Positions 6,773 to 33,398 of a stretch of 64,000 bases of DNA are shown piece after piece. A program made the translations under genes and the position numbers. A model generated the notes under the pieces. It saw only the letters and a program-made list of their open reading frames with translations. It had not been told where the DNA came from and ran no database searches. Origin of the DNA: Piedraia hortae CBS 480.64 (Eukaryota). Positions within the stretch are counted from its first letter, which is position 1. Each line of letters begins with the position of its first letter. The DNA is taken from the NCBI GenBank assembly GCA_010093745.1, contig MU005986.1, positions 62,001 through 126,000 on the forward strand, read 5' to 3'.

Positions 6773-8484
6773 ATGGCAGAACGGTACATTCCCGAGCATC
6801 GGCGCACAAACTTCAAGGCAAAGAGTACCTTCAAGCCCGAGGAGCTGCGCCGCCGCCGCGAGGAGCAGCAGGTAGAGATCCGGAAGCAGAAACGTGAAGA
6901 GAACCTTGCCAAACGACGCGGTCTGGGAGCGCGCGGCGATGGAGCGCCGGGAGCGTCTCTCGGGGCTGCACCTGACAGTGACGATGAAGGCACCAACACG
7001 GAGAGTCAGGTCTGGCAGCTCTCTTCCACAATGTTTCATCCGGCTGACGTGCTCCATAGCTGAACGAAGAATTACCTCTGATGGTACAGGGCGTGTTTTC
7101 GGACAAGTTCGATGATCAGATTGCCGCCACCACCAAGTTCCGCAAGCTGCTCTCCAAGGAACGCAACCCGCCTATTGAGCGTGTCATTGAGACGGGTGTT
7201 GTCAGCCGCTTTGTCGAGTTCTTGCGCTCGCCCCACACTCTCGTGCAGTTCGAAGCCGCCTGGGCCCTCACCAACATCGCCTCAGGCTCCGCCCAGCAGA
7301 CGCAGGTGGTTATCCAGGCCGGCGCCGTGCCCATCTTCGTCGAGCTGCTCAATAGCCCGGAGCCCGACGTCAGAGAGCAGGCGGTATGGGCTTTGGGCAA
7401 CATTGCCGGCGACAGCCCGACCTGCCGAGACTTTGTCCTGTCGTGCGACGCCCTTCCGTCGTTGCTGCGTCTTTTGGGTGACTCTCGAAAGCTGTCCATG
7501 CTCAGGAACGCCACGTGGACGCTGAGCAATTTCTGCCGTGGTAAAACGCCTCAGCCGGCGTGGGAGAAGATTGCGCCGGCCCTTCCCGTGCTGGCCAAGC
7601 TCGTTTACTCGCTTGACGATGAGGTGCTGATTGACGCCTGCTGGGCCATTTCGTACTTGTCTGATGGCTCCAATGACAAGATTCAGGCTGTTATTGACGC
7701 CAACATCCCACGTCGTTTGGTTGAGCTGCTGATGCATGCTTCAACTTCGGTGCAGACGCCCGCTCTTCGCTCCGTTGGAAACATTGTCACGGGTGACGAT
7801 GTCCAGACTCAGCTGATCATTAATTGTGGCGCTCTGCCCGCTCTCCTCTCGCTGCTAAGCTCGGCCAAGGACGGTATCCGCAAAGAGGCTTGCTGGACTA
7901 TTTCCAACATCACGGCTGGCAACAGCTCCCAGATTCAGGCTGTCATTGACGCCAACATCATCCCTCCGCTCATCCATCTTCTTGGCAATGGGGACTTCAA
8001 GACGCGCAAGGAGGCCTGCTGGGCCATTTCCAATGCCACCTCTGGTGGTCTTCAGAAGCCTGAGCAGATTCGTTTCCTCGTTGAGCAGGGTGCCATCCGC
8101 CCACTCTGCGATTTGCTGGTTTGTCCCGACAACAAGATCATCCAGGTCGCCTTAGACGGGCTCGAGAACATTCTCAAGGTGGGTGAGATGGACAAGGCGG
8201 CAAGCGAAGGTAGCAATGAAGCTCCGGTCAACCGCTACGCCCTTTTCATTGAAGACGTCGGCGGAATGGAGAAGATTCACGACTGTCAAAACAACAGCAA
8301 CGAGGAGATTTACATGAAGGCCTACAACATCATCGAGAAGTTCTACTCGGACGAACCCGATGACACCGAGGTCAGCGCTCACGCTCCTCAAGGCCGAGAT
8401 GGTCGGTTCGGCTTCGGCCCTCAGCAGTCGCCTCAGCAGCAGCAGTTTGATTTTGGCAACGGCGATGACAGTATGGACATGTAA
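6773..8484 (+). CDS. SRP1: Importin alpha (karyopherin alpha); intron 7010-7059
   Basis: IBB domain '[26 protein letters not shown]' followed by ARM repeats ('[14 protein letters not shown]', '[14 protein letters not shown]', '[13 protein letters not shown]'). Confidence 0.98.
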
Positions 8485-19967: not shown

Positions 19968-21617
19968 ATGCCGCTGATCAGCAAGTTTTTACCTCTCGTC
20001 CTCCTCGCCTCGAGTGGGCGCTCGATCGCTGTCCCGTCTCCCGGCGATGTACAGGTCACGAATCACGGCCAGGTGGATCAGGGAACTTGGGATAATGCGC
20101 CTCAGGGAATGATGGAGCGTCGTGAGGTGACGGTTACAAATCACGGCCCGGTCGATTCAGGAACTTGGGACGATGCCGCCAAGGACAATGAACGTCGTGA
20201 AGTGACGGTTACGAACCATGGCCAGGTGGATCAGGGAACTTGGGATAATGCGCCTCAGGGAATGATGGAGCGTCGTGAGGTGACGGTAACGAACCACGGC
20301 CCGGTCGACTCTGGAACCTGGGATGATGCCCCCGATGGGAAGGAGAAGAAAAGGGAGGTGACGGTCACGAACCATGGTCCGGTTGACTCTGGCACTTGGG
20401 ACGATGCCGCCAAGGACAATGAACGCCGTGAAGTGACGGTTACGAACCATGGCCAGGTGGATCAGGGAACTTGGGATAATGCGCCTCAGGGAATGATGGA
20501 GCGTCGTGAGGTGACAGTGACAAACCACGGCCCGGTCGACTCTGGAACTTGGGACGATGCCGCCAAGGACAATGAACGTCGTGAAGTGACGGTTACGAAC
20601 CATGGCCAGGTGGATCAGGGCACCTGGGACAATGCACCCCAGGGCGGGATGCAGAAGAGGGAGGTAACAGTTACGAATGACGGCCCTGTCGACTCTGGAA
20701 CCTGGGATGATGCTTCCGAAGGAAAGGAGCGTCGCGAGGTGACGGTCACAAACCATGGCCAGGTGGATCAGGGAACGTGGGATAACGCTCCCCAAGGGAT
20801 GAAACGTCGTGAGGTGACAGTCACAAACCACGGTCCGGTTGATTCTGGCACTTGGGACGATGCCCCCCAGGGCAAGGAGCGTCGTGAAGTGACGGTTACA
20901 AACCACGGCCAAGTGGATCAGGGAACATGGGACAATGCCCCCCAAGAAATGAAACGTCGTGAAGTTACAGTCACGAACCACGGCCCGGTCGACTCTGGAA
21001 CTTGGGATGATGCTCCCGAAGGAAAGGAGCGTCGTGAGGTGACGGTCACAAACCACGGCCAAGTTGATTCTGGAACATTTGACAATCCTTCTGGATCCAA
21101 CCAGCGTCGCGGCCTCTACTGCTTGGACACGTACTTCGCGCAGCAGATTGCAACCAACTTTGGCAATCTGATCCAACTAGTTCCTGGCTGGCAGAGCCTC
21201 GCAAAGGCAGCCCTCGCGCCGGAATTTACAGACTATAGCGAGTCCGTCAACTCTCTAATCAACAGCTGTCCGCAGGGTGCATCGGCACACACTCTGCCGC
21301 TGCTTTCGCCAACATTCTCCAGCCGGAACGAGTTCATCCAGGGTCAGGGCGAGCAGGCGCCCATCAACTTCCAGCAGCTGAACCTGTGGCACTCGTGTGA
21401 CTCGGTCACCATCCGCTGGATGACGACCAATACGGCCAACGTGACCGGAGTCAAGCCCGTCATCGGCATGATTACCATGGAAACGCGTGAGGCGCCCTAC
21501 GGCAACAAGTACCCCTTTTACATCAAGAAGATTTATTCCGAGTTCAACGCCGGCGCCTGGCTACAGAACCTTATCGCCGCCGGTTTCTGTCCCAAGTCAG
21601 CCCTTTCGAAGCTTTAG
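19968..21617 (+). CDS. Secreted Kex2-processed repeat protein (KEP): signal peptide + 14 peptide repeats + C-terminal globular (probably NTF2-like) domain
   Basis: Hydrophobic N-terminus MPLISKFLPLVLLASSG; repeats EVTVTNHG[QP]VD[QS]GTWD[ND]A....[RK]R; 168-aa non-repetitive tail after the last RR. Confidence 0.85.
   Translation: MPLISKFLPLVLLASSGRSIAVPSPGDVQVTNHGQVDQGTWDNAPQGMMERREVTVTNHGPVDSGTWDDAAKDNERREVTVTNHGQVDQGTWDNAPQGMMERREVTVTNHGPVDSGTWDDAPDGKEKKREVTVTNHGPVDSGTWDDAAKDNERREVTVTNHGQVDQGTWDNAPQGMMERREVTVTNHGPVDSGTWDDAAKDNERREVTVTNHGQVDQGTWDNAPQGGMQKREVTVTNDGPVDSGTWDDASEGKERREVTVTNHGQVDQGTWDNAPQGMKRREVTVTNHGPVDSGTWDDAPQGKERREVTVTNHGQVDQGTWDNAPQEMKRREVTVTNHGPVDSGTWDDAPEGKERREVTVTNHGQVDSGTFDNPSGSNQRRGLYCLDTYFAQQIATNFGNLIQLVPGWQSLAKAALAPEFTDYSESVNSLINSCPQGASAHTLPLLSPTFSSRNEFIQGQGEQAPINFQQLNLWHSCDSVTIRWMTTNTANVTGVKPVIGMITMETREAPYGNKYPFYIKKIYSEFNAGAWLQNLIAAGFCPKSALSKL
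20046..21110 (+). repeat. Coding tandem repeat, 14 units of 75-78 bp
   Basis: Directly visible; 1065 nt = 355 aa. Confidence 0.97.
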
Positions 21618-22064: not shown

Positions 22065-22712
22065 ATGGTCCGTAGCCTCTACAAAACCAAACCAACCTAA
22101 CATCATTCTGCATCGTTATAGCCGCCCCGAAAGTCCACGAAGAAAAGTCAAACCCGCTCCTCCCACGCATCCGAAACCTCAACACAAGAATCCGAATTCC
22201 GCGAGGCCTTCCAACTCTTCTCCACCAAACCCAAGACACGGGAAAAACGCTACCTGAACAATGACGGTGAGGCTTATCTTCCTCTCACCGACTTTCGTCG
22301 TGCGCTCTCTGCACTGAACTTCCCGCTCCCGGATACGAAATCTAGAGAGTGGAGGGAGATCTTATCCGCCGTCAACCCTGATGAGGACGAGGAAGACCAA
22401 AGAAAGGGCATAGATTTCGAGACGTTCGTAGGCGTTGCCGAGCTTTTGGCGCGAAGGCAGGATGACGGTGCAGCCGACGCGGAGAATGAGGAGATCGAGA
22501 GTGTATACCACATGTTTACGAAGAACAGGCCCGGCGCAAAGGGGATCAGTCTCCAGGACTTGAAACATGTGGTGGGATTGTTGAAGCTTGAGGACCAAGT
22601 CGATGAGGCACTCCTGAGGGATATGATTCGTGAGGCGAAGGGAGGGGAGGAGGGAGAGGTTTCGTTGGATGAGTTTGGGGATGTTGTTAGACGAGCGGGA
22701 GCGGTTGGGTGA
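22065..22712 (+). CDS. EF-hand (centrin/calmodulin-like) protein; ATG-only first exon, intron 22068-22121
   Basis: ATG|gtccgt...ctaac...tag|CCG opens a 197-codon exon: 'EFREAFQLF', 'GIDFETFV', 'IESVYHMFT...ISLQDLKHV...MIREA...VSLDEFGDVVRRAG'. Confidence 0.75.
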
Positions 22713-22731
22713 GGGCTTTCCATCAATTCTG

Positions 22732-23952
22732 TTATAGTCTCAATTCAGACCCATTTTCTTCTTCCCATTTCTTGATTCTCTCTCTGATCTTTTCTTTGCT
22801 CTTCTTCTTTTCCTCGAAGTTTAACCACTTTTTGAAGACCATTTCAGCCCTCCGCTTCTTCATTTTCACACCCGTCATGCGTTCGTACAGGTCCGATACC
22901 CTTTGCTTATTCTCTATCCCCACCGCTTTCTCGGCATCAACCCACATATCCCACCCAGTCGTCCATTTGGGCCATTCGGTCATTAAGCTTTCGAAGATAG
23001 TCCGCCCGCGCTCGAGGTTGCCGTTCCCGGAACGGAACTCCGAGATCGCGAACTTGGCCGTCAAGAGTCTATGTTCGTTGAGCGGCACAGATTGCAACGC
23101 ACGGGGTAGCAGCTCGCGCGCGCGATCGGGCGTCTTGTTAGTATCCATGAGAAAACTGGCATAGTTGAGCCAGACGCTTGCGGAGGCCCTGAAAGCTTTA
23201 TTCTTAAGCATGCGGTCAAAGAGTGCATCTGCGCGCGCGTGTTTGCCGGACATGATATATATAGATGCCAGTTTCTGGTGCATCGCAAGGCTATCCTGCA
23301 CTTGGCACGCCTGACTGAAGACTTCCTCTACGCGCTCCTCGTCGCCATACTCGACTTCCAGATTCAGCAAAGCGATCCAGATATTGAGCTTTTCTTCTAC
23401 CTCACAAAGGTGTATCGTGCGCAAGGCGCGTTCGGCAATTTCGCGTGCCCGCTGTGTCTCGCCCAATTGGAGTTGGAACGCCATGTATTCGACCCAGAGC
23501 GTAGAATCATTGGGACGCACGAGTAGCTGGCGTTCGAAATCATCGTTGCTGCGTGGGCCGTAGAGGACCAAGTCGCCGGTTACGTCTTTCTGTTGGCTTT
23601 TCTTCTTGCTACGTTTGCGACTTTCCATCGGTGTGTCCGACTCGGACTCGGTTGCGGTAGAGTCGGCAAAGACATCGCCGGTCCAGTCGAAGCCGCGCGT
23701 TTTAAGACATTGAGCTGGCTGAGACGCTGCCACGGGTTGGTCCGTCTTCTGTGCGGCATCACGCTCAGCCTGCGCTTTGATTTTTTTTCGGTCAGAAGAC
23801 CCAAGGACATCAGCATCGATCTTTCCGGTTGATTTGACTGATTTCTTCTGCGCTTCTTCAGCCTTTTGGGACTTTAGTCTTTTCTCTGAAATCACTTTAG
23901 GCTTCTTGCTTGGACGCTCAGCTGCGACTGCTTTCCGTTTGACTTGAGCCAT
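22732..23952 (-). CDS. RRP5: Rrp5 C-terminal half (HAT/TPR repeats) as a stand-alone gene
   Basis: 'GFDWTG', 'PRSNDDFERQLLVRPNDSTLWVEYMAFQLQLGE..RAREIAERALRTI...EEKLNIWIALLNLEVEYG', 'ERGRTIFE', 'FKKWLNFE'. No S1 domains. Confidence 0.9.
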   Translation of the reverse strand: MAQVKRKAVAAERPSKKPKVISEKRLKSQKAEEAQKKSVKSTGKIDADVLGSSDRKKIKAQAERDAAQKTDQPVAASQPAQCLKTRGFDWTGDVFADSTATESESDTPMESRKRSKKKSQQKDVTGDLVLYGPRSNDDFERQLLVRPNDSTLWVEYMAFQLQLGETQRAREIAERALRTIHLCEVEEKLNIWIALLNLEVEYGDEERVEEVFSQACQVQDSLAMHQKLASIYIMSGKHARADALFDRMLKNKAFRASASVWLNYASFLMDTNKTPDRARELLPRALQSVPLNEHRLLTAKFAISEFRSGNGNLERGRTIFESLMTEWPKWTTGWDMWVDAEKAVGIENKQRVSDLYERMTGVKMKKRRAEMVFKKWLNFEEKKKSKEKIRERIKKWEEENGSELRL

Positions 23953-24239
23953 GTTACGAAGACAAGATTATCAGATTCTTTTTCTGGTGCATCGCGGAAC
24001 CCTGCCGCTCCTACGCTGACTCATTGTAACATTGTAATAGACGTGACATATCGTGACACCCGTCAGCAGGATGAACCTTAAGGTTGCATGGTAAGGAAGA
24101 CAATGCCATGTACTATATACACAAGTGTAGCCAGCAAAAACTCCAGGACATGCTCCCATCTACTACACGGCCAATGAGCGGCCACCCGACATGCGACAGA
24201 CCCGATATCCACCCTGGCTCGACCCTCTATGAACACCAA

Positions 24240-24688
24240 TCATATCCGTATTCTGCCAGCAATGGGTGTTTCTAACGGCTCGGCATCACGCCTCCCTTTC
24301 AAAGTACCGTAACCGATAGAGCCGTGACCGGGCGATGGCCATTGCTGCGGTATGTTCTCAAACTTTTGTGTGTAGATCACCTCAACATAGGTCGTAACGG
24401 CCCCAACTTTCGATTGGAGCCATTGTGTAGTAATGGACGGTTGTTGGGCGCCGTCTACAGGAAGTGTAGCGCCCAAATTCGCGTTGCCGCCTGCCTGACG
24501 TGGCCTTTGCAACGTTAGACTTTTCCATTTGAATCACTCCAAGGCAACCAAACTTACATCAGCTCGCTCACGGTCGGCGTCGGGACTGGAGTAGTCATGG
24601 CATTTGCTGCGGTTACAGGAGGCTGTGCTAAGGATGGCGACGTGAGGCCTAGCAGCGCCACCGTATAGGCGAGAATGGGGGACTTCAT
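24240..24688 (-). CDS. Small secreted Kre1-like protein; intron 24505-24557
   Basis: Spliced product MKSPILAYTVALLGLTSPSLA...'TTYVEVIYTQKFENIPQQWPSPGHGSIGYGTLKG', resembling the Kre1 motif. Canonical gtaagt/ctaac/aag intron. Confidence 0.7.
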
Positions 24689-24961
24689 TGTGCGCGGCGG
24701 CTGCTCTTGCGAGCCAGTTGTGCAGGTTGGGTCGAGGGTTTGGAAAAGAGGACTGGCTGGGTGCGAAGGTGAGTGTGAGGTGTGCGACGTGTTCGTATTG
24801 GCAGAGCGTTGGTTGTCAATGTTTACGTCGGTTCATTCCATCTCGGCAACAGCCGAACTGTGTTTGATTGGGCGGGCCGCGTGGCAGGGACCCGCAACGA
24901 CCCCGCACCTGTCAGATGATCTGCACAACCTCATCCTCATCGCCCAAGTAGTCGTCACACA

Positions 24962-25411
24962 ATGCCAATCTCACTGCCCCTTGGCCTCAACTCGCAGCCC
25001 ATGCTTGGGCCCGTCCTCGGCCTTGTGTCCTGGACGTTTGTCATGGAGGCCTGGATGTTTGCCAAGCGCATCCCAGCCTTGTCCAAGTACAACATCGACA
25101 CGCGCCCCGACAAAGTCAAGGGTGACATTGCCGCAAAGGTGCCAGCCCATATCAACTATCTAGCTGATAACTTCAATCATCTCATGGAGCAACCGACCCA
25201 GTTTTACGCAGTGGCTCTAGCCCTTAACCAAATGGGCGTCAAGGACAACTTGTCGGTCAACCTCGCCTGGACTTATGTCGGCCTCCGAGTTGTTCACAGC
25301 CTCATTCAAGCGACTAGCAACAAGGTGATGATGCGCTTCCAGGTGTTTTTGATGAGCTCTCTCACTTTGCTCGGATTGACCGGCAGAACTGTGGGGCTGT
25401 GGTACGAATAA
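24962..25411 (+). CDS. MAPEG family membrane protein
   Basis: 'WMFAKRIPA', 'ADNFNHLMEQPTQFYAV', 'LAWTYVGLRVVHSLIQ', 'MRFQVF'. Confidence 0.85.
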   Translation: MPISLPLGLNSQPMLGPVLGLVSWTFVMEAWMFAKRIPALSKYNIDTRPDKVKGDIAAKVPAHINYLADNFNHLMEQPTQFYAVALALNQMGVKDNLSVNLAWTYVGLRVVHSLIQATSNKVMMRFQVFLMSSLTLLGLTGRTVGLWYE

Positions 25412-25518
25412 TTGATGTCTGTTCACCACTGACTGGTCGTGTACATAAAAAACTATTGTACAGGAAATCTATATCCGCCATGGTCAAACGCCTCGCTATG
25501 CATCCACATACCTATGCA

Positions 25519-26664
25519 TCACAGCAAGTCCCAATTGGGTGTGGCCAAGAACTTTCCCTTGATCTGACCCATGCTCAACGCAAGGCCCTTTGACGGCGTC
25601 TTTGCTTTATTGTCCGCTGTATCGTCTCCAGCCTTCTCTTCTGCTTTAGGCAATGACATAATCCAGACGTCCTGAATACTATCGGACTGTAATCCCATGG
25701 ATACATCCATGGCGAAGCCGCCATAGTCAAGCGTAGCTCGACCAGATTTGTAAACTCGAAGCTTGCCTACCATACCCACTACTTGGGGCGGCTTCTTTGC
25801 CGAGTCCGCGCCTTCGGTATCTGTGTTGCTTTTGTCGCCAATTCCCTTCGCATCCGCCGAGCGGGGCTCGCTCCTGCCGGGCAGATTTACAGTCTGAAGC
25901 TTCGGGAGTAAAGCCGGGAGTTGAAATAAGTAGACCTTATCGTCCTTTTTGTTCCGGCCCCCCTCGGTAGCTGAGGAGCCGAGCTCAGATACAAGGAGTT
26001 TGCGATCAGCTTCGCAGCGTTCCCACTCTTCCTTTTCTTGCTGCGTGTGGAACTGTGGATGCTCAGTTGCAAGGCTGGCTGCTTCTTTTGCCGTTGATAT
26101 CTGCACTTCAGAATCCGAGTCGTCATCATCGCTGCTACCACCTTCTTCAGCCACAGCAACGCCGTCCGCATTAAGGCCGAGTTGTCGCTCGACATGTTCA
26201 TGACGCCGTGTGCGAACAGGCTCAGATTGATCGTCGACAAGCGAGAGAGCTTGGATATTTAGTCCTTGGACATCATCATTCTCTTGGTCAGGTACTTGAG
26301 ACCAATTACCAGAGGTCATTATGCTATCCCCATCGGAATCCGTCTTTATCCTAGCACCGCTTTCACTGCCGAAGCCAGAGTAACTGCCGCGCGAACCTCC
26401 ATCTTCAGTCGACATTTTACCTCTAGCCAAGGGTCCGCTGCCTGCCGATGCACCCATATATCCACCTCTGCCCTGTCCTACGCCTCGTCTCCTCCATAGT
26501 CCATCACGACGAGCTTCGGCCGCATCTTCTGCGGCTCTCAGTTCTGCCTCTTTCCTTTGGCGCTCTTCTTCCGCCCTGATAGCCTCGTTGCGGTCTTTCT
26601 GTGACCGACGTTGTCTATACTTGGGAATTTGCACGGGTTTTGGGGGCCTCGAAGGTGTCGACAT
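25519..26664 (-). CDS. RPC53: RNA polymerase III subunit RPC4/C53
   Basis: 'VYLFQLPALLP', 'GMVGKLRVYKSGRATLDYGG', 'MGQIKGKFLATPNWD'. Confidence 0.85.
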   Translation of the reverse strand: MSTPSRPPKPVQIPKYRQRRSQKDRNEAIRAEEERQRKEAELRAAEDAAEARRDGLWRRRGVGQGRGGYMGASAGSGPLARGKMSTEDGGSRGSYSGFGSESGARIKTDSDGDSIMTSGNWSQVPDQENDDVQGLNIQALSLVDDQSEPVRTRRHEHVERQLGLNADGVAVAEEGGSSDDDDSDSEVQISTAKEAASLATEHPQFHTQQEKEEWERCEADRKLLVSELGSSATEGGRNKKDDKVYLFQLPALLPKLQTVNLPGRSEPRSADAKGIGDKSNTDTEGADSAKKPPQVVGMVGKLRVYKSGRATLDYGGFAMDVSMGLQSDSIQDVWIMSLPKAEEKAGDDTADNKAKTPSKGLALSMGQIKGKFLATPNWDLL

Positions 26665-27155
26665 GGAATTGTTGATGTGGCTCTGAATTTATTTGGCGAG
26701 ATCGTGCATGACGACATGGGTACGGGCCCGCTGCAACTCGTATGCCAAGACTTCTTCGCACACTAACCCCACTTCTCAAAACTGATTCTTATTTCATCTC
26801 ATTTCAACTTCCTGCAACCTCACCATCATATTCACACGAAAATTCCGAGACAATTAGGGGAAATGGTTGATCGGACCAGGCGGTGTGTAAGATGCGTTCA
26901 ATCCAAGTTATCTTACTTGGCTTGATTATCTGGGTAGCCTTCCGTCTTATATAGAAATGATTGATCCTGTGGAAACTTTCAGATTGCCCTAACGTTTCAT
27001 CTGTCATCCACTCGGGCAAACGTTTGATTGACCAAGTTCGCGGTTTGGTCAGTGAAGTGCTTTCGACTCCTCTATACAGGACTCAGTTCAGCACATCATA
27101 GAACTGCATCCACAAACGCAGAGAATTACATGTGCTGTATGCATCCACTCCAAAA

Positions 27156-29753
27156 CTACAGTTTAACCCCTCCACTCTCCTCATCCGACTCATCCAACTC
27201 ATCCGATCCATTTTCACCATCTGATTCCTCCTCACTCTCCTCATTAGATCCCTCCCCACTCCCCTCCCCACCATCCACCTCCTCCTCACCATGAACAAAA
27301 TACTCCGCCTTCAACCCAAGATTAATCCTCCTAGCAGGAACATCAACCTTAAGCACCTTAGCCTTAACCAAATCCCCCACCTCAAACAAAGCGCTCGGGT
27401 CCTCAACTATCCTCGCCGCCATTTCCGACCTATGACACAATCCCGAAAGCCTCGGTCGCGTCTTATCAATATCCACAAAAACCCCAAACGTCTCCACCTT
27501 GCGCACCTTTCCCGTGACAACCATATCCTCTTTCAAGTTCGTCAACGTCAGCGCAGTTTCATCATCCACCCCTTCCGGGGGAGGTTTACACGAAACTTTC
27601 ATTTTCTCTGCGTCGGGGTCGACAGATAGGATGCGGACGGAGACAGTTTGGCCTATTCGAAGGCGTTGGTCGATGCTGGGGACGAAGGTCTCGCTTAGCT
27701 CTGCTAAAGGGAGCCAAGCGCGCACGTCGCCGAAAAATTGGACTGCGGCACCGCTTGGGAGGAGACGCACGACGGTCCCTTTCGATTCCATGCCGGGTTT
27801 TAGGTCCGCGTAGCTGGTCCAGACTTTGGGTTCTTTCACCAGGAGTTTTTTGAGGGTGAGGCGGAGTTTGTGTTTCTCGATGTCGATGGATAGGACGCGA
27901 GCCTTTACGGTTAGGCCGGGACGATATTTCCGTTCGGGGTGCGAGAGGTGGACGTCGCTCAGGTGGGTCTCAGGGACGAGGCCGGTGACGGTGTCGCTGA
28001 GCTTGACTAGGATGCCAACGATGCCGGTTTTACCGCCCAAGATGAGTTCCTCGACGGTGCCCTTGACGACCTCGCCGACTCGAAGGTCTTCGAGGCGGAG
28101 GAATTGTTGCGTCAGGATACTGGGTTTGAGAGAGACGTAGTGGAGGTTGTCCATTGGGTTGAAGTTGAGGATGCGCGCTCGGTGGGTAGAGTTGACTGGG
28201 TAGGGTCCCGTTGTGGTGGCTAGGACGTCTATGTGTGTGTCGGAGACTTGGGAAATGTGCGCAAATGCTGCGGCGGACTTGTCGTTGGTTGAGAGGAAGA
28301 GGCCGCGGTCTGGAAGGACGTGGGTGACTTTGGCCTTCTCTATGATAGAGCTTATGGACAGAGTCTTGTACCATGCACTTGCCTGGGAGGTGGGCGGGGG
28401 TAATCGAAGGAGAGGCTCAAGTAGACTGGCTCCAATCTTCCGTCTATCATCGTCGACGGGAAGTGACCAAGTGATGCGAGCATCGATTTTGGACCCGATT
28501 TTATATTTCTGGCTCAAATTAACGTCTTTACTGGCGCCGATGCCGGTGTGCATGATATCGACGATGATGTCGACCATTCCCATTACTTTTCCAGCTACGC
28601 CGCCCGGTCCAGACTCGGTTATCAGCAGTTGTACAGCTACGCCGGGCAAGAAAGCCCTTACGGTGGGGGCCTCGCCGAGGACAGGCGCGCTGCCACGCTT
28701 CTGGGTAGTTAAGGCGGAAAACCGAGCAGGGTTGGGAGAGAGCTTGACCACTTTGCCGTTGCTGGCTTTTCCTGTGACTAGACAGAGCATGACCTGGCCT
28801 TCTTGTATCTTTTCAATATTAAAAACCTGACCAAGCTCCTTTTTGCCGATGAAGCCTTTGACCTGAGCATCTGCCAGTCCGAGATCCATAATCAGCCCGT
28901 GGTCTTCCATGCTGCGTACCGAAGCTTGCACCAACGAGTTCAGAACAACATCATCGCCATCCAGCTGGTCATTTACATGTTTGGGATCTAGCGACAGCTT
29001 GATACGTCGTGTATTCTTCGCCTTGTCAGCCGCCTCCGAACCAGTTACAGTGACAGCAGCACGTAACCATTGGCCCAGGTGGAACATTCGTTCAATCGCA
29101 AAACCCTGTTTATCTGTTTCCTCATCATCATCGCTTGCATCAGGCCCAATCATCCCCTCCAATTTCGTGGTCAGCGTCTCGGAAATCGCCGTCAGAGGGA
29201 TATATCCCGTCAGGTTATTAGGCAGCGCCAGTGCGATATCCTTATCCGTGATTGCCGTCACACATCCCAACACAATGCTGCCAACCACAAGATTCTTATA
29301 ATTCAGACCGTGGATCCTGAGACCCTGTGCCTTCAGCTTCTTAACCTCCTTCTTGTCCTCCTTCTTCCCCGCCTTTAGCTTCCTCTTCTTTACCGGCGCA
29401 GCAGCCGTCGCTTTTCCGTCCCCATCGAGCTCATACTCTTGGTCATCTCCAAAATCATCCCTCGCATCTGCTTTCAGTCCAGTGCGCTGCTCAAATAGGA
29501 CATCTCGCTCAGCCCGCGCTCTAATTTCCTTGTGCTCGAAAGGTGTCAGGACCCCAGCTCCGCCACGGGGAAATGTGCGCTCCTCGGCCTGTAGGATCGA
29601 GTTCACCACCGGGTTCCTCTCTCCTTCCTTGTTCTGCTGCTTCTTCTTCTTCTTCTCCTCTTTGGGCTTCTTCTGGCTGGATGTTTCCGACGATACTTTG
29701 GCCTTTTTGCTGGATCGCTCGGTCACAGGGGCTTTACGTTTGACTGGTCCCAT
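27156..29753 (-). CDS. RRP5: Rrp5 N-terminal half (about 7 S1 domains + acidic tail) as a stand-alone gene
   Basis: 'FPRGGAGVLTPFEHKEI', 'ALALPNNLTGYIPLTAIS', 'SMEDHGLIMDLG', successive S1 repeats, last S1 ending 'RRINLGLKAEYF', acidic tail, stop. No HAT repeats. Confidence 0.92.
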   Translation of the reverse strand: MGPVKRKAPVTERSSKKAKVSSETSSQKKPKEEKKKKKQQNKEGERNPVVNSILQAEERTFPRGGAGVLTPFEHKEIRARAERDVLFEQRTGLKADARDDFGDDQEYELDGDGKATAAAPVKKRKLKAGKKEDKKEVKKLKAQGLRIHGLNYKNLVVGSIVLGCVTAITDKDIALALPNNLTGYIPLTAISETLTTKLEGMIGPDASDDDEETDKQGFAIERMFHLGQWLRAAVTVTGSEAADKAKNTRRIKLSLDPKHVNDQLDGDDVVLNSLVQASVRSMEDHGLIMDLGLADAQVKGFIGKKELGQVFNIEKIQEGQVMLCLVTGKASNGKVVKLSPNPARFSALTTQKRGSAPVLGEAPTVRAFLPGVAVQLLITESGPGGVAGKVMGMVDIIVDIMHTGIGASKDVNLSQKYKIGSKIDARITWSLPVDDDRRKIGASLLEPLLRLPPPTSQASAWYKTLSISSIIEKAKVTHVLPDRGLFLSTNDKSAAAFAHISQVSDTHIDVLATTTGPYPVNSTHRARILNFNPMDNLHYVSLKPSILTQQFLRLEDLRVGEVVKGTVEELILGGKTGIVGILVKLSDTVTGLVPETHLSDVHLSHPERKYRPGLTVKARVLSIDIEKHKLRLTLKKLLVKEPKVWTSYADLKPGMESKGTVVRLLPSGAAVQFFGDVRAWLPLAELSETFVPSIDQRLRIGQTVSVRILSVDPDAEKMKVSCKPPPEGVDDETALTLTNLKEDMVVTGKVRKVETFGVFVDIDKTRPRLSGLCHRSEMAARIVEDPSALFEVGDLVKAKVLKVDVPARRINLGLKAEYFVHGEEEVDGGEGSGEGSNEESEEESDGENGSDELDESDEESGGVKL

Positions 29754-30559
29754 TGTCGGCGACTTCTAATCAAGCTGGCGCGAAGTGGGAGGAGGGATTT
29801 TTTTTCCTGGCCGGGGTATGGCGGGCCGGCCCGAATTCTCCGCAGTTGAGTAAGCGACTCCTGCTGTGGTTTGTGCTTGGCGGCATCACGCAACATAATT
29901 GAAAGCTCACTTTGGCCAGTGGGCATGTTTTGTTGTACTACTGGCACTTCCATACATATTTCCCCTGGTTTAATAGCGAAACTTACAGTCACCCGTGAGG
30001 AGGTCTCTAGTCATCTCTCTGCCTAACGACTTCGCTTCAGCTGGTCGATGTAAACAGTAGCAGGATACAATTTTTGTCGAGTCTGGCTAGGTCGTTTACT
30101 AGACCATACTTGATGGGAGTTTTTGTGACATCGTCTCAAACCAGCCAGAGGAGGTTTGGGTGATAATTTTCCTACGCGGGCTCTTCTTTCGCAATGCAAA
30201 CGGTTATGATGGTGTGGTAGTATGGTTACCGGTACTGTGAGTAACCGATTTGTCACGGTAATGGACAAGTAGGCAATATGCCGGGACTCATAGACGATAC
30301 GGCTAGTGATCGTAACCATTGCCGGGTGGATATATACGTGAGAGTGAACGGGGTTGTCATCTACGTCTGCCTTGGCTGAGGTATGCTCACTCGTGGGAAA
30401 AGCACGGGCTGGTGATATAGGCAGACCGGACAGGTGGCCCACTCTTGGTTGTTCGTTGGTTTCATAACGTTGACTGGAAAGCTTCTAAACTTGATAGCCA
30501 TATAGACAGATCCACAATCTCACCCTCAGATGGGCTATTCAGCCTCACATCGACGTGCG

Positions 30560-32061: not shown

Positions 32062-33201
32062 TCACCCCACAAGTTTGGTCTTCCCATATGCACCCCCAAG
32101 TTTCCTTCTCTCCTCAAGCGCGGCCTTATACGGCGGGGCCGTAGGCGGCTGCACGGGCTCGAGGGAAACATACCCTTCTGGTAACTTATGCGAAGCATCT
32201 GCATCGAAAGCAGAGAGATCCCCACAGGCCAGGAAAGGAGGAATCCATCTATTCCCACTCTCGTCACCGAAATCCAATTCCGTGATTCCGTGCTCGTTGA
32301 CTACCCTCCTTGCAGTAGAGTCCCTGCTAGCAGTAGCTTCACTATCTTCCTCATCCTCACCAAACCTGACCTCAGTGATTCCCAACTCACCAACCCCCCT
32401 CGTAGCTTCTCCTATCTCCTCCCCTTGCGAAGCCTCTCCCACCTTCAACCCATCCCTCCCCACCCCCTCCAAAGGCCTAAATCCAGTACAAACCACAAAC
32501 GCCTCTAGCGAACTCTTCCTACTTGCGCGGGGCTTCGCCACAACCACACTCTCAAACAGCAGCTTTAGCTGAAAATAAAGCAAATCCACATCCTTTGCGC
32601 GGAAAATTTTCGCTACGAACCTGCCGCCCGGTCTGAGGATTTGCAGTGAGAGTTTGAGAGCAGCCCATACGAGCTGAGACTGGATGTATATGTCCAGGTC
32701 GTGGAGGCCAGTCACGTCCGGTGCCCCGTCTGAGAGGACCAGGTCTACTGGACGTGGGTGGGGCGCCTCGCGACCTGCTTCGCGGGATGGGGATGCTTCA
32801 CCGAGGGCGCCGAGGAGTAGAGGGATGGTAGAGGGATGGGTGATATCTGCTTTTAGAGAGATGATTCCTTCGAGGGGGGACATGGGCTGGAGGTCTATTG
32901 CAACGATTTTGATCTCATTGTTGGTAGGTCTGGTTGGGGGGTTGTGTGGTAAAGGTGATGGGTTGTGACGTGTGTCTTGCCATGATGTCTGGTTGATGTG
33001 TTCGCCCTGGATGAGGACGCGTGAGAGGACTTGTGACCAGCTGCCGGGCGCGGCGCAAAGGTCTACCACGCGGGTCACGCCGGAGAAGAGGTCGAATTCT
33101 TGGTCTAGTTGAAGGAGCTTGAAAGCTGACCGCGCGCGCCAGCCTTGTTCTTTGGCGAGACGGTAGTATGCGTCGCGCTTATCTTTGGAGGATTTACCCA
33201 T
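32062..33201 (-). CDS. TRM7: tRNA (cytidine32/guanosine34-2'-O)-methyltransferase
   Basis: 'MGKSSKDKRDAYYRLAKEQGWRARSAFKLLQLD', 'VDLCAAPGSWSQV', 'DGAPDVTGLHDLD', 'PVQPPTAPPYK'. Confidence 0.97.
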   Translation of the reverse strand: MGKSSKDKRDAYYRLAKEQGWRARSAFKLLQLDQEFDLFSGVTRVVDLCAAPGSWSQVLSRVLIQGEHINQTSWQDTRHNPSPLPHNPPTRPTNNEIKIVAIDLQPMSPLEGIISLKADITHPSTIPLLLGALGEASPSREAGREAPHPRPVDLVLSDGAPDVTGLHDLDIYIQSQLVWAALKLSLQILRPGGRFVAKIFRAKDVDLLYFQLKLLFESVVVAKPRASRKSSLEAFVVCTGFRPLEGVGRDGLKVGEASQGEEIGEATRGVGELGITEVRFGEDEEDSEATASRDSTARRVVNEHGITELDFGDESGNRWIPPFLACGDLSAFDADASHKLPEGYVSLEPVQPPTAPPYKAALEERRKLGGAYGKTKLVG

Positions 33202-33398
33202 TTTGTGGTGTGCTAGGTAGAAATTGAAAATTTGTGCGAGGTTTGTTGAAGAGAATTTTTGGCATCCACCACTACCATTACTATCTGTACATGACTTGCG
33301 CAAATACGCCTATGCTACAGTGCTCGGTTCGATCGCCAAGGACCGAGATGTCGGACTTGAATTACAGAGTGAAGACCACGCACCGTACCAGGTGCTGT

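Follow-up and report, generated by a model that had tools for sequence, protein, structure and literature searches.

In Piedraia hortae CBS 480.64, the essential and normally single-copy ribosome-assembly gene RRP5 is now two genes, with the S1 repeats on one (gene A) and the helical-repeat domain on the other (gene B). P. hortae is the natural counterpart of a split previously made only by engineering in yeast. The history we favor, with a probability of about 0.7, is duplication followed by complementary deletion, with both products acting in trans as yeast fragments do.

Locus Layout

The window analyzed was a 64,000-nt stretch of contig MU005986.1 (positions 62,001 to 126,000), with which Logan contigs from a DNA run (X1) and from a run of another study (X2) were compared. 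As the initial annotation had proposed, A and B were two ORFs on the same (minus) strand with three unrelated genes between them, which were identified by Pfam as RPC53/Rpc4, MAPEG and, below threshold, KRE1-like genes:

22122..22712, plus strand: EF-hand-like gene, convergent with B (Pfam EF-hand_7, weak, E 0.0013)
22732..23952, minus strand: gene B (Rrp5-C), 406 aa, stop 22732-22734 (ORF, Pfam, Baudoinia alignment, X2 contig)
24092..24782, minus strand: mRNA of a KRE1-like small secreted protein, CDS 24688-24558 + 24504-24240, intron 24505-24557 (X2 contig)
24962..25411, plus strand, opposite to A and B: MAPEG-family gene (Pfam MAPEG, E 2.6e-22)
25519..26664, minus strand: RPC53/Rpc4, RNA polymerase III subunit (Pfam RNA_pol_Rpc4, E 1.6e-24; X2 contig 25101-26578)
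27156..29753, minus strand: gene A (Rrp5-N), 865 aa, stop 27156-27158 (ORF, Pfam, Baudoinia alignment, X2 contig)

The KRE1-like product was 131 aa in length with a signal peptide (translation of the spliced CDS 24688-24240, minus strand), and its second exon scored 26.1 bits against Pfam KRE1, slightly below the 27-bit cut-off. A GT..AG joint was found on the plus strand at the EF-hand-like gene (22067-22120, X2 contig); one X2 contig spanned this gene and B, because their stops were only 20 nt apart.

Domain Content of Genes A and B

Gene A comprised the Rrp5 leader, seven S1/OB units (1-6 and the last) and an acidic tail. Pfam matches were to S1 (E 5.8e-42), S1_RRP5 (1.6e-35) and OB_RRP5_4th (5.3e-23), with no match to a HAT/TPR family. 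The protein shared 56% identity with residues 1-722 of Baudoinia Rrp5 (BLASTP) and mapped onto yeast Rrp5 17-682 and 1103-1379, the latter segment aligning to A residues 581-859. Its features, all on the minus strand, were:

29499..29753: leader, residues 1-85, with a basic MGPVKRK...KKAK stretch and the motif FPRGG..LTP.EHK.I.A.AERD (Baudoinia Rrp5 alignment)
27585..29282: S1/OB units 1-6, residues 158-723, six matches to a newly built S1 profile, collinear with Baudoinia Rrp5 148-722
27525..27584: deletion junction, residues 724-743, after ...MKVSCK (MAFFT with eight orthologs; BLASTP)
27309..27524: last S1 unit, residues 744-815, S1 profile 62.4 bits, motif VTGKVRKVE.FG.F.DID...PRLSGLCHRSE
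27159..27296: acidic tail, residues 820-865, equal to the acidic linker before GFDW in full-length Rrp5 (BLASTP/MAFFT)
26787..27155: 3' untranslated region, as far as the transcript contig reaches (X2 contig)

The last S1 unit is the ortholog of unit 13 in relatives and corresponds by position to yeast S1-12. No HAT remnant was detected in the 3' untranslated region (no tblastn match of Baudoinia Rrp5). A had been described earlier as S1 domains plus an acidic tail only; the lack of HAT repeats held, but A is not the whole S1 half.

Units 7-12, the counterpart of Baudoinia Rrp5 residues 723-1285, were missing from A in a clean, in-register loss that was absent from the initial annotation. A thus has 7 units, compared to 13 in 55 of 58 orthologs and 12 in the remaining three, and its deletion junction sits within one continuous X2 contig.

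Gene B matched HAT/TPR families only in Pfam (among them HAT_PRP39_C, 2.6e-15, TPR_14, HAT_PRP39_N and HAT_Syf1), with no S1 match. Its description as a GFDW linker with HAT repeats, beside its leader, was upheld. It was 61% identical to Baudoinia Rrp5 1454-1791 (BLASTP) and matched solved yeast Rrp5 TPR chains nearly end to end (e.g., residues 1-305 of 314 in 5nlg_A). Its features, again on the minus strand, were:

23749..23952: leader, residues 1-68, a diverged second copy of the Rrp5 N-terminus, MAQVKRKAVAAERPSKKPKV ... IKAQAERD
23551..23727: GFDW segment and basic patch, residues 76-134 (Baudoinia alignment; 29.7 bits against a GFDW-region profile)
22735..23550: HAT/TPR domain, residues 135-406 (Pfam, Baudoinia alignment, yeast TPR structures)

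An in-frame TAA at 23968-23970 lay upstream of the leader, and tblastn and profile searches at the locus found no S1 trace ahead of B. In yeast Rrp5, residues 1408-1418 fold into a short helix that docks onto the TPR (PMC6168700); the GFDW segment of B may be its equivalent.

The Shared Leader

The homology of the two leaders, claimed from the outset, was borne out by BLASTP of A against B (30/85 identities, E 7e-06). At the DNA level, 29622-29753 and 23820-23952 matched at 64.5% over 138 nt, the similarity beginning exactly at both ATGs; outside the leader, no DNA similarity was found between the A and B loci. A profile was built from 116 orthologous Rrp5 N-termini, leaving out A and B; on it the A leader scored 126 bits and the B leader 21.2 bits (E 2.7e-05), compared to a best score of 12.0 bits among 2000 composition-matched shuffles. 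Where B has MAQVKRKAVAAERPSKKPKV (residues 1-40), the family consensus reads MApvKRkAvtdeRpsKkak; B also keeps IKAQAERD. The two genes encode the same residue at 15 of 23 leader codons and use a differing codon in 7 of those 15, which makes the copies old and shows conservation of the peptide.

Ancestral State and Origin of the Split

Among 80 metagenome loci, of which 73 were tabulated, the 40 with at least 4.6 kb upstream were informative, and all 40 carried a single gene: a full collinear RRP5 in 35, and S1 and HAT in one gene in the other five. The 119 other long homologs among the matches listed combined S1 with HAT/TPR, except P0107, which had S1-type families only. The Rrp5 leader was found in 0 of 40 HAT-sized database matches (best 4.4 bits). 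By this comparison, the ancestral state is one RRP5 gene.

Such an ancestor would have had about 1800 codons encoding the leader, 13 S1/OB units, the acidic linker, the GFDW helix and the HAT/TPR domain. The whole gene, or at minimum its 5' end and 3' part, would have been duplicated, after which each copy would have deleted what the other retained, with the start codon and basic leader surviving in both and S1 units 7-12 being lost from both. Gene B would then represent the second leader copy fused straight to the GFDW segment and complete HAT/TPR domain. Because no HAT remnant follows A and no S1 precedes B, it is the shared leader that points to duplication of the whole gene. Duplication (putatively in tandem) and deletion, as first suggested, is supported overall, with the caveats that the split point differs from the classic one in yeast and that six internal S1 units were lost from A as well.

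An unlikely alternative, though the most serious one, is a single break in the acidic linker, with the RPC53/MAPEG/KRE1-like block moved between the halves by a rearrangement and only the 5' end (the start codon and about 70 codons) duplicated, which would have supplied the HAT half with a start. The end of A and the post-leader start of B abut in one linker of about 70 aa (Baudoinia about 1400-1460) without overlap or remnant, and the loci are alike nowhere beyond the leader, which would fit a single break. However, ends at domain boundaries are also expected from independent deletions under selection and genome streamlining, P. hortae ranking lowest in both genome size (16.95 Mb) and gene number (7,572) among 101 Dothideomycetes compared (PMC7082219). 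The present-day outcome would be the same, and duplication must have preceded or coincided with the break, because breaking an essential gene should be lethal unless a HAT half is expressed. A synteny comparison supported neither history.

Search for Other Copies and Conservation

Annotated proteins were screened with B (223-711 aa) and with A (475-1514 and 1515-4325 aa). The sole P. hortae match in the three length classes was P0041, the 1712-aa model in the public record, which is a chimera joining A to B through RPC53 and stretches in the wrong frame. Among annotated proteins of 475-4325 aa, and only there, a second intact RRP5 can be ruled out. Of the four threats named in the initial annotation, this one was therefore addressed in part: the screen covered annotated proteins only, some entries being without species assignment, which leaves a small probability that an intact full-length RRP5 lies elsewhere and that A and B are surplus partial paralogs, decaying or otherwise employed. 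Against this, neither ORF is interrupted, both are conserved where the family is invariant, and both occur on transcript contigs; the genome is the compact one noted above, and DNA depth across the locus was flat (12.6-14.5), which indicates that there is no collapsed near-identical copy.

Near-invariant columns were kept at 93.1% of 159 (A, N-terminal part), 86.1% of 36 (last S1) and 88.8% of 107 (HAT), despite an overall identity of just 56-61%. P. hortae retained fewer such columns than nearly all of the 114 orthologs, a comparison biased by the consensus being drawn from those same orthologs, and conservation in A and B seems somewhat relaxed. With 86-93% of columns kept and both halves on contigs of the spliced library, neither half appeared unexpressed or neutrally evolving, outcomes that the initial annotation had seen as fatal to its reading.

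Transcript and DNA Contigs

Run X2, labelled only "RNA?", probably derived from spliced RNA, because its joints were missing from the DNA run X1. Its contigs had zero letters differing from the window, and it may therefore come from that strain and not be independent, while the assembly may itself have been built from X1. One X2 contig (26787-29726) ran from inside A past its stop by 369 nt, unbroken by any joint, and a separate one covered B (22121-23912). The contig of the KRE1-like gene showed a CT..AC joint, marking a canonical intron, and a loose end with 23 nt of poly-T at about 24092, placing a poly(A) end between A and B, 140 nt upstream of the B ATG. The joints listed in X2 were two small introns in other genes, none connecting A, RPC53 or B. 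On this contig evidence, a weaker kind that reveals presence, not absence, and to which strand, ends and rare isoforms are inaccessible, A and B are separately transcribed, and no single spliced transcript joining the halves was seen. Misassembly, likewise named beforehand as a threat, was not borne out: two pieces of X1 contig, overlapping by 27 nt (24545-24571), together spanned all 9.3 kb and, as in X2, had no differing letter.

B is predicted to be translated from the ATG at 23952. It is very improbable that B is transcribed yet not translated from this leader ATG, or non-functional, the S1 half alone or another TPR protein being sufficient. The B contig does begin 40 nt past the ATG, but the A contig is likewise 27 nt short of its well-supported ATG; moreover, the leader peptide still fits the family consensus although its codons have diverged synonymously, no further in-frame ATG occurs before codon 109, which lies beyond the conserved GFDW segment, and the HAT domain keeps its near-invariant columns as given above. 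Least credible of all is an artefact, by misassembly or because the public single-gene model is right and the halves are spliced together, since that 1712-aa protein takes in residues of RPC53, MAPEG sequence read in antisense and part of the KRE1-like gene in the wrong frame, with none of its junctions among the joints observed in X2, while the A stop and 3' untranslated region lie in one unbroken contig, a polyadenylated end separates the halves and X1 agrees throughout.

Putative Function of the Two Products

Following duplication and complementary deletion, the A and B polypeptides would be imported into the nucleus independently of each other and work on pre-rRNA in trans, with no other copy expected. 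By extension from yeast, A would be the ITS1-binding, pre-60S (Noc1/Noc2-side) RNA-binding module, and B the module in the 90S/SSU processome, on the Utp22/Rrp7 and Rok1 side. Function of A and B in trans is plausible, and the split may uncouple the 40S and 60S roles.

Comparison with Known Systems

Full-length fungal Rrp5 is 1729 aa in yeast, 1796 aa in Chaetomium thermophilum (PDB 6rxy) and 1803 aa in Baudoinia panamericana (BAUCODRAFT_32189). P. hortae likewise has the leader, S1/OB units 1-6, the last unit, acidic linker, GFDW and HAT/TPR, collinear with the family and 56-61% identical to Baudoinia, but on two genes with three others between, with the leader present twice and S1 7-12 missing.

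According to Khoshnevis 2019 (PMC6800521), co-expressed yeast Rrp5 fragments largely complement growth, including splits at several S1 borders; S1-9 + S10-12T and other S1 borders are credited there to Torchet 1998, Eppens 1999 and Young & Karbstein 2011. The same paper reports an A2-cleavage defect by northern in cells with S1-9 + TPR alone (delta 10-12), and the title cited for Vos 2004 refers to functional 40S production without reduction. As in the engineered form described there, P. hortae has two polypeptides, with N-terminal S1 repeats on one and the TPR on the other. In contrast to that plasmid-borne version, the P. hortae split is natural and chromosomal, falls between the last S1 and the TPR rather than at the classic S1-9 | S1-10 border, and gives the TPR piece its own N-terminal leader copy. 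The units missing in P. hortae include, by position, yeast S1-7, the block of A2 cleavage that responds to Noc1/Noc2, as well as S1-10/11; the mapping is by position only, because the count is 12 units in yeast but 13 in these fungi.

Short single-chain forms of Rrp5 were found in Lipomyces (four records, 990-995 aa), P0209 (1005 aa) and the metagenome loci L039/L040 and L075/L076, which have shortened genes of about 1456 and 1493 aa. As in A, distal S1 units are gone from the same border, after unit 6 (...VSCK), with the HAT segment coming straight after it in Lipomyces and P0209. Unlike P. hortae, these forms keep the S1 part and HAT in one gene, and Lipomyces and P0209 also lack the last S1 that P. 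hortae retains; the Lipomyces models stop inside the HAT domain and are possibly truncated.

In the Drosophila monkey-king case, a gene is reported to have undergone fission, being duplicated and then degenerating partially and in complementary fashion in the two copies. P. hortae similarly has two paralogs with complementary parts of the ancestral coding region, but here the gene is an essential, normally single-copy ribosome-assembly factor, and the two still overlap only in their common 5' leader.

Locus Organization and Domain Content

The locus in Piedraia hortae CBS 480.64 carried the S1 array and the HAT/TPR domain of the ribosome assembly factor Rrp5 on separate polypeptides, since the ORF of gene A (Rrp5-N) ended at a stop codon and was followed by three genes before gene B (Rrp5-C) was reached. 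The features, in the order in which A and B are read, were as follows.

27156–29753, minus strand: gene A, ORF of 865 aa, stop codon at 27156–27158
25519–26664, minus strand: RPC53/Rpc4 (Pfam E 1.6e-24)
24962–25411, plus strand: MAPEG gene (Pfam E 2.6e-22)
Between the MAPEG gene and gene B: KRE1-like gene, spliced, encoding a 131-aa signal-peptide protein (exon 2 against Pfam KRE1, 26.1 bits, cut-off 27)
22732–23952, minus strand: gene B, ORF of 406 aa

Based on Pfam, S1-type families were found in A alone (S1, 5.8e-42; S1_RRP5, 1.6e-35; OB_RRP5_4th, 5.3e-23) and HAT/TPR families in B alone, where the S1 profile likewise detected no S1 unit. The two ORFs, their S1-only and HAT-only content and the three genes between them, all described in the initial annotation, were thus borne out by ORF and Pfam analysis, and that description was correct in every item that could be tested. 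The sole run of N in the window (21 letters, from 45130) was far from the RRP5 locus. Both RRP5 genes were set in very short intergenic space. Elsewhere in the window, a 549-aa ORF (19968–21617, plus strand) had a signal-peptide-like start, many tandem units of about 33 aa (REVTVTNHG.VD.GTWD.AP...) and a non-repetitive C-terminal part, with Pfam matches that were below threshold or looked like chance.

Comparison With Full-Length Rrp5

Domain retention was complementary when A and B were compared with the 1803-aa Rrp5 of Baudoinia (P0049), with no overlap beyond the leader, the basic N-terminus of Rrp5. A covered approximately residues 1–722 (A 1–723, 56% identity) and, resuming after its residue 723 at about 1286, the last S1 unit and the acidic linker to about 1450, while B covered the leader (B 1–66 aligned with 1–85) and residues 1454–1803 (B 76–398 aligned with 1454–1791, 61% identity). 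The S1 profile built here counted seven S1/OB units in A (1–6 and 13) versus 13 in 55 and 12 in three of 58 orthologs, indicating that A is devoid of units 7–12, removed in register; the numbering follows the 13 units of most Dothideomycete orthologs examined, versus 12 in yeast. In an alignment with eight of 119 orthologs, the junction in A fell directly after ...MKVSCK, at the end of unit 6, and the sequence resumed there with the lead-in to the last unit and then its core.

Relative to yeast Rrp5, A aligned with residues 17–682 and 1103–1379, and B spanned nearly the whole TPR structure (residues 1–305 of 314 in 5nlg_A). Yeast S1 10–12 are reported to comprise residues 1083–1343 and the TPR construct residues 1400–1729, with a short helix at 1408–1418 (PMC6168700). 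Mapped to yeast domain numbers by position only, the part deleted from A takes in S1-7 through S1-11 and perhaps S1-6.

The GFDW segment, which precedes the HAT/TPR domain, and the C-terminal HAT/TPR domain itself were present in B only, and a profile of the GFDW region scored B's copy alone (29.7 bits). Searching the 64 kb by tblastn with Baudoinia Rrp5 revealed no remnant of units 7–12 and no second HAT domain. A stretch past the stop codon of A, ...GGVKL*FWSG, resembled GLKT.GFDW.G by eye and was considered as a HAT remnant, then rejected when the GFDW-region profile gave no score there. A predicted complex of A 730–865 with B 76–406 scored 0.00 in a run without controls, which says nothing either way.

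The Shared Leader

That both ORFs begin with a homologous leader, as had been proposed, was corroborated by BLASTP, by DNA alignment and by an N-terminal profile. BLASTP between A and B gave 30 identities over 85 positions (E 7e-06). At the DNA level, similarity started precisely at both ATGs (64.5% identity over 138 nt), with a second block at the AERD motif (69% over 58 nt), and no similarity between A and B could be aligned upstream of the two start codons. An in-frame TAA was found six codons 5′ of the ATG of B. The N-terminal profile, built from 116 of the 119 orthologs (>1700 aa and starting with M) with A and B left out, gave 126 bits for A and 21.2 bits for B (E 2.7e-05), and shuffling the first 110 residues of B 2000 times yielded a top score of 12.0. 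The leader features tested were a basic M-A-x-x-KRK...KK stretch and an FPRGG..LTP.E..I...A..D motif; B retained the basic stretch and IKAQAERD and had lost FPRGG. Residues 1–19 of B were nearly identical to the family consensus. Among the first 23 codon pairs of A and B, 15 encoded the same residue, seven of them by different codons. These differences where residues agree show that the leader copies are old and that selection has maintained the peptide.

Of the near-invariant columns (conservation of 95% or more across 114 aligned orthologs), P. hortae kept 93.1% in the N part (n = 159), 86.1% in the last S1 unit (n = 36) and 88.8% in the HAT domain (n = 107); these values were at or under the bottom of the ortholog range, in a comparison biased against P. 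hortae because the orthologs themselves defined the consensus. Overall identity to Baudoinia Rrp5 was 56–61%. Judged from sequence, A and B appear far from neutral decay, yet somewhat relaxed or fast-evolving, and the columns kept, together with synonymous differences at conserved leader codons, point to purifying selection on both daughters.

Public Gene Model and Transcripts

The public model K470DRAFT_217955 (P0041; 1712 aa) from P. hortae CBS 480.64 matched 93% of A with 100% identity, and RNA_pol_Rpc4 was among its listed domains. Its five pieces were as follows.

Piece 1: A residues 1–804
Piece 2: 26631–25579, RPC53 sequence
Piece 3: 25417–25226, antisense to the MAPEG gene
Piece 4: 24755–24549, KRE1-like gene, out of frame
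Piece 5: 23862–22735, B residues 31–406

P0041 is a multi-gene chimera that conceals the RRP5 split, and the present analysis corrects it. Because of this fusion, RPC53, MAPEG and the KRE1-like gene would probably be absent from orthology tables as genes of their own. Suspicion is warranted for any protein in which S1, Rpc4 and HAT domains occur together.

Contigs of two sequencing runs covered the locus, a DNA run (X1), possibly the assembly source, and a run from another study (X2), for which the library type was guessed as 'RNA?' and the strain may be the same as that of the window. Both runs matched the window letter for letter, and DNA depth was flat (12.6–14.5). Between 21500 and 30800, the X2 contigs had two joints of 53–54 nt with canonical ends that were absent from X1, as well as a 23-nt poly-T loose end and an adapter remnant, from which we infer that X2 is cDNA. 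Its contigs report presence and not absence, and give neither strand nor true ends; accordingly, the stretches without X2 cover (23913–24091, 26579–26786 and 29727–29944) were not counted as evidence.

Gene A was carried on a contig without a joint (26787–29726) that ran through its stop codon and a further 369 nt, and another (25101–26578) covered RPC53 together with the 3′ end of MAPEG. The KRE1-like mRNA (24092–24782) had an intron at 24505–24557 and a poly(A) end at 24092, 140 nt upstream of the ATG of B. Gene B was merged on a contig (21718–23912) with a convergent EF-hand-like gene (22122–22712, plus strand; intron 22067–22120), whose stop is 20 nt from that of B (22712–22734); since one transcript contig spans both genes, their 3′ ends probably overlap. 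No joint linking A, RPC53 or B was found among the X2 joints listed, and the junctions of the public model were likewise absent from them. Both A and B are expressed, each having contigs in this library with its spliced and polyadenylated sequences.

Upstream of A there was an FtsJ-type methyltransferase ORF (32062–33309, minus strand; Pfam E 3.5e-47), and a 3269-nt transcript contig extended from past 30800 down to 29945, about 190 nt off the ATG of A. The ribosome-biogenesis promoter motif GCGATGAG was absent within 200 nt upstream of A and of B when up to one mismatch was allowed, and was unenriched across the window (75 found versus 61 expected).

RRP5 in Relatives

Using HAT-domain alignment (12 of the 40 HAT-sized matches plus B), 80 metagenome loci of relatives were retrieved, of which 73 were anchored; among the other seven (L029, L049, L054, L057, L061, L067, and L069), the first three had long S1 alignments up to residue ∼1381. 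At least 4.6 kb of upstream sequence was available for 40 anchored loci. A full collinear RRP5 was found in 35 of these, and S1 and HAT were in a single gene in the remaining five as well (L038, L039, L040, L068, and L076). S1 and HAT/TPR families also occurred together in 118 of the 119 other long homologs listed. A single gene in all 40 informative loci and in nearly all of these homologs argues that the fused state is ancestral. Single shortened RRP5 genes with fewer S1 units than the usual 13 were present in L039/L040 (6695–11062, ∼1456 codons) and L075/L076 (6395–10873 in L076, ∼1493 codons).

The combination of leader and HAT domain was seen in P. hortae only, among the relatives' loci and database matches examined; the Rrp5 leader was absent from all 40 HAT-sized database matches (top score 4.4 bits), and P0014, P0023, and P0030 began in the acidic linker, devoid of the leader. 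No second P. hortae protein occurred among the A-sized matches (n = 56, E ≤ 1e-30), nor any intact second RRP5 among annotated proteins of 475–4325 aa for the S1 part and 223–711 aa for the HAT part. Short loci seemingly devoid of S1 were considered as further natural splits and dismissed as truncated contigs, cases of an intron, or genes contiguous by eye: L021 and L024 both begin inside the acidic linker, an intron is probable in L026, and in L037 the last S1 lies immediately upstream, in frame. The records of P0014 (373 aa, HAT only) and P0179 (990 aa, S1 only, ending mid S1 unit) give the same length for the longest contig (63,945 nt) and the same source type, and the two proteins may be parts of a fungal RRP5 that is split, or wrongly modelled, on a single contig. 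A search of the open PMC and bioRxiv literature found no description of a natural Rrp5 split.

Short fused forms were found in four Lipomyces models of 990–995 aa (P0346, P0347, P0212, and P0348) and in P0209 (1005 aa), where the linker and HAT came straight after S1 units 1–6 within a single chain; the four Lipomyces models end within the HAT domain and are possibly truncated. P0213 was also a short form with units 1–6, linker and HAT. The border of the short forms past unit 6 (...VSCK) is that of the P. hortae deletion. Distal S1 loss after unit 6 thus recurs in fungi, whereas the split does not.

Synteny in relatives, also compared, could not decide between RRP5 histories. When ORFs outside RRP5 (n = 221, from the 8–45 kb part of the window) were compared with the 80 loci, only importin-alpha matched, and only in L052, from a distant relative; a rough estimate puts the number of such matches arising by chance at about 0.8, so nothing was inferred from it. 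The match comprised three overlapping ORFs in the window (7060–8481, plus strand), convergent and ∼14 kb past the 3′ end of B, and the gene is likewise convergent in L052 (10089–10832), about 9 kb from the 3′ end of RRP5.

Origin of the Split and Its Implications

The locus is best read as the fission of a known gene, in which RRP5 was duplicated and each copy then lost by deletion what the other retained. This history of A and B, as put forward in the initial annotation, is supported by the shared leader, the complementary domains and the single-gene state of relatives, and is the best-supported one. Copy A would have lost the GFDW/HAT part and units 7–12, copy B everything between codon ∼70 and the linker, and the start codon and basic leader would remain in each. 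A live variant is a single break in which only the 5′ end was duplicated, as no remnants of the lost parts were found and the two end points lie next to each other within one linker of ∼70 aa. With duplication and complementary deletion, the clean fission of an essential single-copy gene is recorded by the duplicated leader as a fossil of the duplication. P. hortae is reported to have the smallest assembly (16.95 Mb) and the fewest genes (7,572) among 101 Dothideomycetes (PMC7082219).

By analogy with yeast, A and B would act in trans: yeast Rrp5 fragments cut at several S1 borders are reported to give near-full complementation on co-expression (PMC6800521). The same report describes an A2-cleavage defect with raised 21S in yeast with S1-9 and TPR alone, and assigns to S1-7 the role of holding off A2 cleavage until Noc1/Noc2 binding (PMC6800521). 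Because exactly the middle region is missing, coupling of the 40S and 60S pathways may, speculatively, be simplified in P. hortae. A further step, tentative and on balance doubtful, is that this fungus assembles ribosomes with a minimal, physically uncoupled Rrp5 and that the 40S–60S checkpoint is absent or rewired, given an S1 half devoid of S1-7, which in yeast restrains A2 cleavage until 60S assembly starts, and of most units that promote this cleavage (S1-10/11). The TPR half would be an unattached protein with an import leader of its own, and one option is that ITS1 separation could proceed through the A3/RNase MRP route only.

Rrp5 is the one assembly factor required for both ribosomal subunits, and studies in yeast propose that an early step of 40S cleavage can be gated by the progress of 60S assembly because Rrp5 is a single chain. 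A viable fungus that has the modules on separate genes and lacks the middle S1 units puts this single-chain gating idea to a natural test. The retained parts indicate what evolution tolerates, with the covalent linkage and units 7–12 dispensable, and units 1–6, the last S1 unit and the TPR domain retained. If P. hortae does assemble ribosomes in this way, then together with the Lipomyces-type forms it would place the minimal functional Rrp5 at S1 units 1–6 plus TPR, in cis or in trans.
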